A stretch of DNA of 64,000 nucleotides from Neodothiora populina (Eukaryota), in NCBI RefSeq assembly GCF_041146345.1, contig NW_027191409.1, positions 930,001-994,000 on the forward strand, in the 5' to 3' direction. The notes beneath the pieces are model-generated. The model did not search any database, had not been told where the DNA came from, and was given only the letters and a program-made list of their open reading frames with translations. Positions 53,394-56,937 of the stretch are shown here, in pieces. The position numbers and the translations under genes were made by a program. Within the stretch, counting starts at the first letter, position 1. Every line of letters starts with the position of its first letter.

Positions 53394-54923
53394 AGTGGTA
53401 ACCTAATCAGGCTGTAGGAGCGGTGGAGACGCGTGACCAAGAGCGTGATCTAACTACGCGACGTTGCTCAGTACCTTTATTTACTCGTGGTATTTCTTTT
53501 GATGATTTAATCTTTTACAGTGTACTACATCTGGTCGAAGTTCGTTGCGGTGGACAGATAATAGAAATGACATGACTTTGGTCGGCCTTGTACTATTTCC
53601 AAGGTTGTTTTCGATCACGCAATGTCTGCTGTACCTAATCGTCGCGACCCCAGACCGTGTTCTTGGTGCTGTTGCCTTGCCTTTTCCGGTCAGAATGGAT
53701 TTGTGGAGGAGGGTCCAAGCATCGTCTACTGTGCCTCTGAGCATATGACACATGCTACTCTTGCCTCTGCACTGCCACCTGATGCGGTAGTCCAGAAAAG
53801 AGAGGCTTGTTCGCGATGAATATGCTAGCATTTATGGTCGAAAATAGGCATTTTATCACCTAAGGTGCAAAGTTTGCAATGTTGGCGCGCGGGTCTAGGC
53901 TCCTGAATTTGTGGCTTGGTTTCTGGTCTCTGCTCTGCTTACCCTTCAACGTTGTTGGCTTGTCGCTCTTCCTCTGTTCTAGGTATCACGGCACTAGGTT
54001 AGGGGAGATACTTGTAGGCAGCCTACGATCTGCGGCACAAGCGGTTCCTTTCCGCAGTCGGGGCGTGTGGCAAAGAGCCCTTGGCTGGGGTGCGGATAGT
54101 GAGTCAGAAGGGTGTTCAATCAGCAAATCACAGAAGGTTCAGCGTCATCTTACTACATTCGGTTTAGCGCTTCCGATAGAAGTCTGGGGCAGGACAAGTG
54201 GGAGTCACCCAGTCACCTCTTTCGCCGTCGCCATTTGAATCATCGCTTTCCCGTCTGATCTGTTCCACCCATACGCAAACATGTACTCAGTTTCCCTTGT
54301 CTACTACTCTATCTGGTTTGCTTGCGGACGCGAATAGGAACAGAGTCATAATTATATTTGACTTGACTCAGCAAGATCCGTGGAAAATCCAGAAGCGAGA
54401 TCGGTCTGTTTTGGGCGCCTTTGTTGGTTTCCCAAACGCTACTTCGTTTCCAAGGCTTGCTGCCTGTTGTAATCGCCACACTATTACTCAATTCGCCTCC
54501 TTCAGTCATACCTCCCACCCCCATTCGCCTCCCGTCTTTTCTGCTACTATAATACCACGCAAGGACGCTTCAGACGACTTTTGACTCTGTGGACGTATCG
54601 TGTCTTTTCCTAGTCACTTGGACCTACACATGCGACTAGCTGAACGTGGCATACCATCCCCATATTAGCTTCCTCACCCACACCACTGCCACCATTATCG
54701 CCTTCGGCCTTTGGTAGCCCCACTACTACTACTAGCAACACAACCAACCACAACAATTACTACCAGCACTAAACGGACCCCAGATTAACTCGCCTCTTCT
54801 GAATTCGCCTCGACTTGCTCTTGATACCACTTTCTATATCTTGTTGTAGCGGCTCTGGACTGATTCACTTCATCTAAGCCGTCGCTTCCTCTTTAGATCT
54901 GGTAACTTCCTATCCAGGAAGTA

Positions 54924-55272
54924 ATGCGCAGCACCCCCAACTACACCTCTGCTCCAGTCACCACTTACTCTAAAGACAATAACAGCTACTTGACTCTCAA
55001 CATGGGCTCAGTTTCGTGGTAAGCCCCCAAAGGGCCACCGCTTTCTGTTTCCGTGGGAAGACCATATCTTTGGTAGTTCCGAGGATTAATACCAACTGTT
55101 TCTTTTGAGTTGAGTGGTGACTGGAAGACTGTTGGAAGATATCTAATAGTCTACAAGCGACTCCATAGACTTCTTCCGCTCGACTTCTCTGGGAATCTCC
55201 GGATTTCTTGACACAAATACTCCATCGGTCACTCTTACCGGATACCTCTGGTCCTTTCGCGACCCTCGATAA
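54924..55272 (+). promoter_or_regulatory. Spliced upstream ORF (69 aa from ATG 54924, or 43 aa from ATG 55002) in the cyclin leader
   Basis: Donor GTAAGC 55019, branch CTAAT 55143, acceptor AAG 55155-55157. The spliced frame stays open to TAA 55270-55272. Confidence 0.6.
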
Positions 55273-55289
55273 TACAACGCTCTTCCAAT

Positions 55290-56937
55290 ATGGGCATCGA
55301 TACCCGGCTTTCTTATGGCCTTGACAAGTGTTACCATGCTTCGTCATCACAGCAATACCCTGTTTCTCCCGTCTCCTTACCCGACACCTCTTCTCAACCT
55401 TTGACCTCCTCTCAATCATCCTCTTCCGAAGACCAAACTGCCTCGCAATGTCAACCGAGCTGTGGCTTTGTAGTCCCGGTAGAACAGCGCCAGAACCCTC
55501 GGCGATCTTCGTCCCAGACTCAGAAGCCCCCTACCCTTGTAAGACAGGACGAGCGCAAAGTGTCGTTCGTCGACAGCCTTGTTGGTAAGTTCAACGAAAC
55601 CTGAAATCGCAGGTGCTCAAAGTCATCATCGCTAAGAAACTCCTTCAGACTCTGCCACTCAGATGGTTGAAGTCATTTGGCCCCTCTCTGTCGCCCCTCC
55701 TTCTTGCAGACCCAATGCAAGTGGTGTGCTATCACTCAGAAGATACATTGAAGAGACGCTCAGGCGGTCAAGAACCAGCTACTCTACCCTTCAAGTCGCC
55801 CTGTACTATCTGGTACTGATCATGCCAATGGTCCCGAAAGGCGATTTTACTAGAGAGCAGCTCAGCGACTCTCCCTCAATGCGCTCTCTGCAATGCGGTA
55901 GGCGCATGTTCCTGGCTGCATTGATTCTCGCATCCAAATACCTTCAGGATCGCAACTATTCCGCAAAAGCTTGGAGCAAGATGTCTGGACTCAAGGTAGC
56001 CGAGATCAACATGAACGAGCGCGCATTTCTTTCGTGCGTTGACTGGAAGCTCCACATTCCCGACAACATCTTCAAGCGTTGGACGGATGTGGTATTGCGT
56101 TTCACACCATCGCAGTCGACTGCGCAACAAGCGTCGTTTGCAGCTCCAAGACGCACATGGAAAGAGATGATCCCTCTGCTCACTCCTGAGCTCGATATGA
56201 TTCCGAGTGTTGCCGTCAGCTCCGTAGTGGCATCTCCTGAGCCTGTACCCGTTCAGACATCCTTCACAGGCTTGCCTTCATACTTGGAACCAACCCCTGC
56301 CGTCGTGCCTCCTACCCCCAGCTTTGTTCGCAACACGGCTGCGCTGCCAACCCCACGACCAACGCCATCTCCTCGCTCATACACTCCCGCAGTGAGTGTC
56401 GCAGCGGTCGAGTCCTGGCCTGCAGCGTCTGTGCGCCGATCGTCGACGCCTTTGAGTGACTTGTCACGCGAAAGCAGCCCGGAGTCGAGCTTCTCTGATG
56501 CGTCCCGCCTTTCGAGATCCTCGTCCTTTTCTTCGGTGTCAACCTCCTTGACAAGCATCTCGAGTCAAGCCAGTGTCTCTGCTCAAGAACTTCTGAGCAG
56601 CCTTGTCGCCGGTCGCAACCTTCAGCCAGGTCAGACAGTGGTTCTCGATAGGGGACTCACTGCCAGTCCGGTGTCTGTGACCTACGACGAGGTCAAGTCT
56701 TTCATGACACAATGCCCTGGCACCATTAGGGATCGAAGGTGTGCACAAAATATGCCTAGCATTGCCGAGAACGACTCTTCGCAGCCCAGCCAGCGCCTCC
56801 ATAGTAGTGTGCGCCAGATGCTCGGTGCTCCATCGCAAGCGATGACGGCATCCCGTAAGCGCTCATACTGTGGAGAGGGTGAAGCCGAGGCCATGCCACG
56901 CAAGCAACGCTGCCTGTCGTCGATGATGGCACATTAA
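55290..56937 (+). CDS. Pho85-type cyclin, Clg1/Pcl5/Pas1-like
   Basis: PPTLVRQDERKVSFVDSLV|DSATQMVEVIWP (intron 55585-55648), ETLRRSRTSYSTLQVALYY and CGRRMFLAALILASKYLQDRNYSAKAWSK, followed by a PEST-like tail. Confidence 0.9.

Follow-up and report, generated by a model that had tools for sequence, protein, structure and literature searches.

The cyclin gene considered here is preceded by a short reading frame in its mRNA leader, which raises the question of how this frame and the RNA around it bear on translation of the cyclin. The window, that is, the whole stretch of DNA analysed, comprises 64,000 nt of the forward strand of Neodothiora populina (contig NW_027191409.1, positions 930,001 to 994,000), and every feature discussed below lies on its plus strand. 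The gene itself (55290..56937) encodes a PHO80-like cyclin of the Clg1/Pas1/'PHO85 cyclin-5' type, with exons at 55290-55584 and 55649-56937 and an intron at 55585-55648. This model gives 527 aa, the same length as the public protein that shows 100% identity over exon 1. The second exon matches PF08613 (Pfam; 33.2 bits against a cut-off of 21, E 8.6e-08), a domain also present in the cyclins of relatives. Some public annotations label the orthologues 'PHO85 cyclin-5', a provisional assignment to Pcl5 rather than to Clg1 or Pas1. One ORF call, P0006, suggested that the upstream frame is a missed N-terminal extension of the cyclin; this reading was rejected because the blocks shared with P0006 fall in three different frames of the window.

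A metagenome search with patterns that favoured Dothideomycetes and Leotiomycetes returned 62 orthologous loci, 50 of them with enough upstream DNA (40 loci were read explicitly, and a further 4, being near-identical duplicates, were assigned by their 97.6-99.9% identity). At the homologous place, 50/50 loci have one uORF, 24-34 codons long, in Dothideomycetes and Leotiomycetes alike. In the window this is uORF-c (54924..55022), with 32 codons plus TAA, corresponding to what the initial annotation had treated as the unspliced form. Its ATG is invariant in all 32 aligned sequences, in each of which it lies 19, 22 or 25 nt ahead of a helix, P1. Every gap run within the uORF is a multiple of 3 (46 runs of 3 nt and a single one of 9 nt), while those past its stop comprise 98 of 1, 33 of 2, 22 of 3 and 17 of 5 nt. 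Some 'A-like' motif hits without an in-frame ATG (L004-6, L014, L015, L020, L021, L035, L062 and others) were at the wrong site, their true partners being found later, and long ORFs in L016 and L046 were dropped as chance overlaps.

P1 pairs codons of this uORF with the leader beyond its stop. As placed by the covariation alignment, its 5′ strand (54953..54970) spans approximately codons 10-16, with a CCAGTC core that encodes Pro-Val, and its 3′ strand (55107..55125), with a GACTGG core, lies about 90 nt past the uORF-c stop. A helix with the CCAGT/ACTGG core is present in 44/50 loci; across these, its duplex energy ranges from -21 to -30 kcal/mol, and its 3′ partner lies 93-143 nt past the uORF stop. 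Four extra 'B-like' matches (L016 3845, L017 714, L020 2396, L038 3545) were left out, with weak partners of -11.1 to -16.0 kcal/mol. On 32 sequences, the 11 pairs of P1 are formed in 98.0% of 352 cells, and 5 pairs show compensatory change, with 20 cells altered on both sides. Slid controls are 18.5-44.2% paired, and 0/500 shuffles equalled the alignment in paired share, number of changed cells or covariation score, in a test where shuffling ignores the relatedness of the sequences and the structure derives from the same alignments. The compensations include C-G to U-A and C-G to A-U in a Cladosporiales-like group, A-U to G-C in a Helotiales-like group, and C-G to A-U in L028; in L030, P1 is replaced by a wholly different helix that is still complementary.

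The whole P1-closed domain (54953..55125), delimited by the MFE structure and by the consensus fold of four close sequences, includes the uORF-c stop codon along with the 3′ two-thirds of the frame. The window fold of 54912-55147 has an MFE of -79.3 kcal/mol (z -4.70), and 0/200 shuffles were as stable; fold z-scores are weak in some lineages (L030 -0.25, L005 -1.64, L034 -1.65). Within the domain, a nested in-frame ATG with a 6-codon tail (55002..55022), invariant in four Dothideales-type sequences, forms a conserved hairpin with 55037-55055 that places the uORF-c stop in an internal loop. In a Pleosporales-type set of 19 sequences, five helices with 51 pairs are 96.6% paired, 12 pairs are compensatory and 0/500 shuffles did as well, and P1, P2 and P3 of Pleosporales span uORF codons 8-28. 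The internal architecture varies by lineage, only P1 being common to all 32 sequences, and in one Pleosporales lineage (L005, L006, L020, L021) the outer P1 has decayed, with a shifted helix in its place. G-U pairs are numerous in P1 and in the Pleosporales helices, and the fold is therefore specific to the mRNA strand. A scan of 54300-55400 against Rfam 15, with E up to 10, returned only a chance hit to a snoRNA model (E 2.3). Overall, the predicted domain is about 170-200 nt long, is closed by P1 and contains the uORF's own stop codon. Both hallmarks of an embedded-uORF RNA motif, a conserved covarying secondary structure and a uORF overlapping it, are found here.

Two further uORFs, both from the ATG listing and with homologues in relatives, precede uORF-c in the window: uORF-a (54281..54337; 18 codons), which has the first ATG of an ATG-depleted leader, and uORF-b (54630..54668; 12 codons). 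The close relative L001 has a 19-codon homologue of uORF-a, 11 nt from the start of its contig, and a 13-codon homologue of uORF-b, which in Pleosporales has 6 codons. Several contigs of relatives (L004-6, L007, L008, L009, L010, L011, L013) lack exactly the coding intron of 53-74 nt when compared with near-identical or related genomic contigs, and it is this clean loss that marks them as transcript-like; such assembled contigs lose rare isoforms and might fuse overlapping transcripts. Their leaders include the uORF and the helix, where these are reached, and are colinear with the genome. The leader that such contigs reveal in relatives is unspliced and about 1 kb long, and its three uORFs are followed by an ATG-free spacer; in Pleosporales, the contigs begin 2-46 nt ahead of their uORF-a. 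From these relatives, we infer for the window a transcription start just upstream of uORF-a, at about 54260-54280, an apparently unspliced cyclin mRNA leader of about 1 kb in which uORF-c is the third of three uORFs, and translation of uORF-c. One sequencing run of uncertain kind (0.18 of words) yielded six short DNA-like contigs with no joints, one of them colinear over 55036-55305, and was uninformative on expression and splicing.

Between uORF-c and the cyclin start lies an ATG-free spacer (55023..55289), which includes two blocks, 55239-55254 and 55261-55274, that are invariant in four close sequences. In 12/12 leaders examined, the ATG count between uORF-c and the cyclin ATG is 0 over 295-650 nt, and the same comparison gives 8-15 ATGs as the expectation per whole leader. 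The plus strand of the window has only 4 ATGs over 53880-55290, where CAT is not depleted. A GCN4-like layout, with several uORFs, a long leader and an ATG-free spacer before the main AUG, is thus present in the window and in its relatives.

These observations make it very probable that the mature leader carries a conserved structured uORF element. Such an element probably acts in cis on translation of the cyclin, whether its net effect is repression or permission. A more specific mechanism, in which ribosomes unzip the structure and reinitiate, is put forward only tentatively. The uORF-c coding sequence would double as the 5′ strand of P1, and the stable domain, which begins 19-25 nt past the uAUG, would be a barrier to scanning 40S subunits. 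Ribosomes initiating at the uAUG would unzip P1 during translation (in Pleosporales, P2 too) and terminate inside the opened domain, whereupon a fraction would resume scanning, cross the ATG-free spacer and initiate anew on the cyclin AUG. Output of the cyclin would in this way depend on how much initiation and reinitiation the cell can support (ternary complex, eIF3, helicases), a coupling that resembles those of yeast CLN3, PCL5 and GCN4. Hairpin-enhanced start recognition has an optimal hairpin distance of 14 nt, and the 19-25 nt between uAUG and helix exceed this optimum, which counts against the gate model. Furthermore, P1 might re-form behind the terminating ribosome, and the domain could therefore equally block reinitiation. 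With all three claims weighed together, we lean towards a ribosome-sensitive structured uORF gate on cyclin translation. The initial annotation had the uORF regulate the cyclin through splicing that sets reinitiation; a conserved regulatory uORF survives from that proposal, as the unspliced form starting at ATG 54924, reinitiation is a reasonable consequence of it, and the control by splicing is not supported.

Among the alternatives, the one that fares best, while still unlikely, is a sensor RNA, in which the fold is a receptor for a small molecule or a protein, or a thermometer that melts, and the uORF is its expression platform; the fold would then decide whether a ribosome initiates at the uORF, bypasses it or departs from it. 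Covariation of a multi-helix domain across two fungal classes is consistent with this, as are the conserved unpaired blocks (the stop region and the junction strands) and the precedent of the fungal amd motif, which in the published account pairs a uORF with a conserved fold (PMC5640933). Against it, there is no Rfam match, the gene context offers no candidate ligand, and a fold of which only P1 is shared by all 32 sequences is for that reason unlike a ligand pocket.

A distinctly unlikely alternative concerns the fate of the mRNA. A uORF stop far upstream of the main ORF is a context prone to nonsense-mediated decay, and in these leaders a distance of 267-650 nt separates the uORF stop from the main ORF, with structure directly after the stop. 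The domain might then shield the uORF-terminating mRNA from such decay, or it might localise the mRNA. Neither role accounts for the uORF codons serving as 5′ strands, the fixed spacing of 19-25 nt or the ATG-free spacer.

It is very unlikely that a metabolite makes the nascent peptide of uORF-c arrest the terminating ribosome, in the manner of the arginine attenuator peptide (AAP) to which the initial annotation had likened it. Inside a lineage, the C-terminal codons and the stop hardly vary (..W-TAA in Dothideales-like and Cladosporiales-like sequences, ..C-TAG in Pleosporales), and the length of the uORF is conserved, as a stalling peptide would allow. Across lineages, however, the only common residues are Pro-Val, both of whose codons lie inside the core of the RNA helix, and the peptide has no Pfam hit. 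Entropy at codon positions 1, 2 and 3 is 1.12, 0.88 and 0.71 for the 14 unpaired uORF codons (similar to the 0.96 of unpaired non-coding columns) and 0.41, 0.35 and 0.34 for the paired ones (matching the 0.37 of paired non-coding columns), so that third positions are no more variable than first and second, which argues against a peptide-dependent mechanism. Neither this codon-position entropy nor the cross-lineage comparison gives evidence of purifying selection at the amino acid level. Thus, of the conserved-peptide uORF that had been proposed, the position is conserved (50/50 loci) and the peptide is unconstrained. In the alignments, the start codon, frame and stop position of uORF-c are kept and its peptide is not, and uORF-c is probably retained as a translated reading frame rather than for its product.

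The splicing switch that the initial annotation placed here is highly improbable. It would alternatively remove an intron at 55019..55157, so that the uORF changes between its 6- or 32-codon form and a 43-aa form, and reinitiation would be set accordingly. The signals are indeed present: ATG 54924 and the in-frame ATG 55002 both end at TGG TAA (55017-55022), a GTAAGC donor lies at 55019, CTAAT at 55143 and an AAG acceptor with its last base at 55157. Once joined, the frame runs on without a stop as far as a TAA at 55270-55272, which leaves 17 nt to the cyclin ATG (55290). L001 retains GTAAGC and has CAG at the aligned acceptor, and splicing-controlled leader uORFs are known in fungi from the SDC motif and TPP riboswitches (PMC5640933). 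However, the sites are not conserved: two of the three close relatives, L002 and L032, have GTAAAC as donor and have lost branch and acceptor by deletion, L001 has ACAAT for CTAAT, and in Pleosporales and Helotiales sequences the uORF stop has no GT. Nor do the signals exceed chance: the window has 27 sets of donor, branch and AG of similar quality on one strand and 12 on the other, against about 30 for each strand over 20 shuffles. These frequencies amount to an expectation of 0.11-0.17 for every 370 nt, and a comparable set lies inside the cyclin exon, at 56392.

The product of the joined frame fares no better. 'Exon 2' measures 115, 77, 77 and 117 nt in four species, with 1-nt gaps that break the frame and unrelated translations, and a search of 1.84 billion representatives revealed no conserved peptide family. 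The 37-aa 'exon 2' translation has no Pfam hit, and its four hits among those representatives (E 4e-8 to 7e-4; proteins of 629-1215 aa, with 3-5 matched stretches) were taken as compositional matches. At the RNA level, L001, a transcript-like contig, lacks the coding intron, yet it retains the DNA homologous to the putative leader intron, and no leader intron is removed in the transcript/genome contig pairs of other lineages, where the coding intron is lost and the leader stays colinear with the genome. In addition, removal of 55019-55157 would delete the conserved 3′ strand of P1, which lies within it. Finally, the idea that the complementary 10-mers, exact, inverted and about 165-210 nt apart, are a DNA-level element (inverted transcription factor sites or mobile-element remains) has a negligible probability, as both are contained in transcript-like contigs, where two further uORFs precede them, their G-U pairs would be A-C mismatches on the opposite strand, and compensatory changes, whole-helix replacement and the covariation of other nested helices preserve pairing and not sequence.

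The structured uORF can be set against several known systems. In the ribosome shunt of the pararetrovirus CaMV, a short ORF ends a few nucleotides before the base of a large stable stem. Like it, the window combines a short ORF with a large stable stem in its long leader, but its uORF starts 19-25 nt before the helix, crosses the 5′ strand and ends inside the domain, so that it does not have the shunt configuration of a short ORF ending just upstream of the stem base. GCN4-type multi-uORF leaders are also those of cpc-1 and ATF4, and we know of no conserved RNA domain comparable to P1 in the GCN4 and cpc-1 leaders. GCN4 itself resembles the window in its long leader, several uORFs and ATG-free spacer before the main start, as summarised in a review (PMC3048474). 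The same review describes the uORF of budding yeast CLN3 and the helicase-dependent long leaders of S. pombe cig2 and cdc13; in these, too, cyclin output follows initiation capacity, by way of either a uORF or a long leader with structure, but its account includes no covarying RNA domain or uORF within a helix (PMC3048474). The S. cerevisiae PCL5 leader is, as here, the multi-uORF leader of a Pho85-cyclin mRNA, with several translated repressive uORFs and eIF3-dependent reinitiation; it differs in having 2 AUG and 2 UUG uORFs and a 29-A tract, and the available text reports no conserved long-range helix (bioRxiv 10.1101/2023.05.11.540079).

AAP (arg-2/CPA1) and the TPP-riboswitch gene NMT1 likewise have fungal leader uORFs that control the downstream ORF (PMC5640933). 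AAP acts via a conserved peptide, whereas uORF-c has no peptide constraint, and NMT1 combines a TPP aptamer with alternative splicing, whereas the window has neither a TPP hit (Rfam 15) nor a conserved intron. A close parallel in form is the amd motif, a conserved covarying structure of the fungal 5′ leader that, as in the window, shares part of its sequence with a short uORF; its authors propose that uORF expression and structure work jointly (Li and Breaker 2017, PMC5640933). As published, amd belongs to an amidase-like gene and has a uORF of 6 or 8 codons, a highly conserved peptide and a two-stem junction (PMC5640933). The window element, in contrast, precedes a cyclin, has 24-34 codons with no peptide constraint, and builds a long-range helix that encloses its own stop. 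The two elements differ in gene, uORF length and fold as far as amd is described, and no Rfam family matched the window element. The main texts of two dedicated fungal screens report no element next to a cyclin (PMC5640933, in which the word 'cyclin' has 0 occurrences; PMC8216456), and no prior description of the window element was found.

What the element would mean follows from what it combines: a frame kept open for translation and not for its product, a long-range helix built from that frame's own codons, and a GCN4-like three-uORF leader ahead of a Pho85-type cyclin. It illustrates that apparent conservation of a uORF peptide can be entirely RNA-structural, and it is a warning to annotation that splice-like signals in leaders are an unsafe basis for introns and micropeptides. 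To our knowledge, covariation-supported regulatory RNA structures are rare in eukaryotic mRNA leaders. An unlikely but far-reaching reading is that of a eukaryotic RNA switch predating the split of Dothideomycetes and Leotiomycetes, in which a conformation set by the ribosome, or by a ligand, protein or temperature, decides access to the start codon of a CDK cyclin. If this were true, a fungal cell-cycle or nutrient checkpoint would be encoded in RNA structure, and the element would be among the very few covariation-supported cis-regulatory structures of eukaryotic mRNAs outside the TPP riboswitch. The element offers a concrete test system for how elongating ribosomes and leader structure jointly set reinitiation, and in filamentous fungi it may couple the function of Pho85 cyclins to translation capacity, a role that PCL5 and CLN3 have in yeast.

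The reading frame downstream of the leader encodes a PHO80-like cyclin (PF08613, 33.2 bits), with exons at 55290-55584 and 55649-56937 on the forward strand. This two-exon model yields 527 aa, the same length as the public protein of Neodothiora populina (Dothideales), to which exon 1 is 100% identical. A protein search with exon 1 also recovered P0006, an ORF call whose frame enters from upstream and continues across the cyclin ATG. In the window, the blocks it has in common with P0006 are spread over three reading frames, which gave the first sign that conservation here is at the nucleotide level rather than the peptide level. Scanning metagenome contigs with a cyclin alignment produced 62 orthologous loci, grouped according to their best-matching named protein in blastx: Dothideales-like (L001, L002 and L032), Pleosporales and Mytilinidiales-like (the largest group), Cladosporiales-like (60-67% to Rachicladosporium), Teratosphaeriaceae-like (L029/30 and L033/34), and, in the Leotiomycetes, Helotiales-like (73-94% to Calycina marina; L040/41, 55% to Mollisiaceae and Lachnellula).

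The third upstream frame of the leader, uORF-c, runs on the forward strand from ATG 54924, with an in-frame ATG at 55002, to a common stop, TAA 55020-55022. The initial annotation proposed that an intron at 55019-55157 converts it into a 43-aa peptide and thereby sets reinitiation on the cyclin. The window sequence, ORF list and translation bear out each signal involved: the ATGs and stop, the putative donor GTAAGC starting at 55019, CTAAT at 55143, AAG ending at 55157, and a joined frame open to TAA 55270-55272, 17 nt before the cyclin ATG at 55290. Taken alone, these splice-like signals are weak evidence for an intron, as a donor, branch and AG set of this kind turns up 27 and 12 times on the window's two strands, and shuffled sequence yields about 30 per strand (0.11-0.17 expected per 370 nt). 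One such set lies at 56392, within the second cyclin exon, and is read as coding sequence in the public 527-aa model.

Aligning L001, L002 and L032 to the window indicates that the intron is not conserved: the donor is GTAAGC in two of the four sequences and GTAAAC in the other two, deletions in L002 and L032 remove both branch and acceptor, and L001 has ACAAT where the window has CTAAT. The stretch after the putative intron, read as the second part of the peptide, measures 115, 77, 77 and 117 nt; it has gap runs of 1 nt, and its translations are unrelated. The uORF at 54924-55022 measures 99, 96, 96 and 96 nt with one 3-nt gap. The 37-aa translation of the stretch after the putative intron belongs to no Pfam family and, against 1.84 billion representatives, found only four weak matches, all in long multi-stretch proteins. 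Past the structured domain and upstream of the cyclin ATG, blocks at 55239-55254 (16 nt) and 55261-55274 (14 nt), the latter holding the stop of the proposed spliced frame, are invariant in the same four sequences despite a cyclin N-terminus just 51-72% identical; no role was found for them.

Transcript evidence comes from contigs of relatives only; a search of sequencing runs found no RNA source, and six short contigs from the one run examined were DNA-like and had no joints. Relative to genomic contigs that are near-identical or related, several contigs lack exactly the coding intron of 53-74 nt, and the leaders of these intron-less contigs are colinear with the genome (L004-6 against L020/21, 100% identical; L008 against L023/25/60, 99.5-99.9%; L010/L011 against L024/26, 98-99.5%; and likewise L013 against L046/48, L009 against L031/52/58, and L007 against L043/45). 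L001, the closest transcript-like contig to the window, reads straight over the coding-intron position and retains the homologous counterpart of the putative leader intron; four further loci with its contig-name prefix behave likewise. By these comparisons, the element is present in mature mRNA of relatives with the leader unspliced, and rare isoforms could be missed in contigs. The initial annotation picked the correct place and a real regulatory uORF, but neither its splice switch nor its peptide reading withstands comparison between species. A second gap of ~60 nt downstream of the cyclin stop, between the transcript-like L005 (3570/3571) and its genomic twin L021 (3093-3154), points to a possible 3' UTR intron in the species concerned.

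Of the 62 loci, 12 are too short upstream; each of the 50 that extend far enough has a single uORF of 24-34 codons at the homologous place. The uORF-c ATG does not vary in 32 of 32 aligned sequences; the peptides vary between lineages, with Pro-Val the sole residues common to all. Among 19 Pleosporales-type sequences, every gap run within the uORF has a length divisible by three (3 nt in 46 runs and 9 nt in one, stemming from at least five alignment events), and past its stop there are 98 runs of 1 nt, 33 of 2 nt, 22 of 3 nt and 17 of 5 nt. Entropy at codon positions 1/2/3 is 1.12/0.88/0.71 in unpaired uORF codons (0.96 in unpaired non-coding columns) and 0.41/0.35/0.34 in paired ones (0.37 in paired non-coding columns), so that codon-position entropy gives no amino-acid-level signal in either class of column. 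In-frame gaps without such a signal indicate a frame that is kept open and a product that is unconstrained.

An RNA fold is conserved as well. The 10-mer at 55116-55125, inside the putative intron, recurs in 17 of the 62 loci, always upstream of the cyclin anchor, and is the reverse complement of the uORF 10-mer at 54953-54962. These lie within P1, a predicted long-range helix pairing 54953-54970 with 55107-55125, whose strands co-vary: two pairs are changed and compensated in the Cladosporiales-like group, one in the Helotiales-like group and one in L028, L017/18 have a U-G pair, and in L030 the sequence is wholly different and still complementary. A helix with a CCAGT/ACTGG core occurs in 44 of 50 loci; the outer part has decayed and a shifted helix appears instead in four (L005, L006, L020 and L021), and two (L030 and L034) have a divergent helix. 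In the Plenodomus-like Pleosporales L005 (584-850) and L020 (3353-3620), where outer P1 complementarity is gone and Pro-Val has become Pro-Pro, a 33-codon uORF, the further helix P2 and the shifted replacement are retained. In the same place, the Teratosphaeriaceae-like L030 (3213-3460) and L034 (2396-2660) keep a uORF of 29-31 codons together with a long-range helix whose sequence is entirely different; these loci share an inner CCAAGU/ACUUGG helix with the Cladosporiales-like group.

Across 32 sequences, the 11 pairs of P1 are formed in 98.0% of 352 cells, with both-side changes at five pairs (20 cells); none of 500 shuffles, which ignore relatedness and were applied to structures derived from the same sequences, matched the paired share, changed cells or covariation score. 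The slid controls (18.5-44.2% paired), together with the lineage-specific compensations, form the stronger argument for the predicted helix. The Pleosporales-type consensus fold (19 sequences) comprises five helices totalling 51 pairs (96.6% paired), with compensatory changes at 12 of the pairs, and 0 of 500 shuffles matched it. Its P1 (21 bp) spans codons formerly taken for a conserved peptide motif, and P2 spans a second apparent motif. The abundance of G-U pairs marks the fold as belonging to the mRNA strand. The window segment 54912-55147 has a predicted folding energy of -79.3 kcal/mol (z -4.70), a stability reached by none of 200 shuffles, and z ranges from -0.25 to -3.50 in other lineages. 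The distance from ATG to P1 is 19, 22 or 25 nt in all 32 sequences, and the nested ATG and uORF-c stop fall within a predicted hairpin conserved in four close sequences. The folded domain has no match in Rfam 15. Elsewhere on the forward strand, the 5'-strand motif recurs with one mismatch at 54208-54217, just upstream of the first uORF, and a 3'-strand-like 12-mer identical to the Cladosporiales-type variant lies at 56038-56049 in cyclin V-D-W-K codons; one-mismatch matches are not commoner than chance (8 observed, 4.6 expected).

No ATG separates uORF-c from the cyclin ATG (295-650 nt) in any of 12 leaders examined, which hold 1-4 upstream ATGs against 8-15 expected. Transcript-like contigs start 2-46 nt before the first uORF, and in genomic loci ATG-dense DNA resumes upstream of it. 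In the window, the forward strand from 53880 to 55290 has ATGs only at 54281, 54630, 54924 and 55002, with CAT not depleted. A leader of about 1 kb is inferred from this pattern, which makes a transcription start downstream of 55002 unlikely. Two more conserved uORFs share it, uORF-a (54281-54337) and uORF-b (54630-54668), with 14 and 6 codons in Pleosporales and 18-19 and 12-13 in the Dothideales-like pair. The 18-codon uORF-a has a recognisably similar peptide in L001, and its Pleosporales counterpart, at most ~50 nt from where transcript-like contigs begin, has a well-kept peptide; as a candidate for a conserved peptide, uORF-a may be the stronger.

Sequence comparison establishes a translated-frame signature, a covarying long-range helix of the uORF's own codons that encloses the stop, a fixed distance from start to helix, the element's presence in mRNA and a spacer devoid of ATGs. 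The folded domain would act as a barrier to scanning; ribosomes initiating at the upstream AUG would unzip it and terminate inside, some would then reinitiate at the cyclin AUG, and cyclin output would follow initiation and reinitiation capacity. The sign could be the opposite, with the domain trapping post-termination subunits, and a sensor function of the folded domain is possible.

The closest published kind to this element is the amd motif, in which a uORF likewise overlaps a conserved fold; the SDC motif comes near as well (PMC5640933). Among cyclins, published accounts describe a multi-uORF leader with eIF3-dependent reinitiation for yeast PCL5 (bioRxiv 10.1101/2023.05.11.540079), a uORF coupling CLN3 to growth signalling, and helicases required by S. 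pombe cyclin leaders (PMC3048474). No prior description of this element was found in the literature searched, and the word 'cyclin' occurs nowhere in the main texts of two fungal structure screens (PMC5640933, PMC8216456) or three PMC5640933 supplements; an unnamed 'intergenic structure' in the PMC8216456 supplement could still correspond to it. By sequence comparison, the locus is a structured uORF element common to two fungal classes, which is experimentally tractable and, given this distribution, is probably older than their split.
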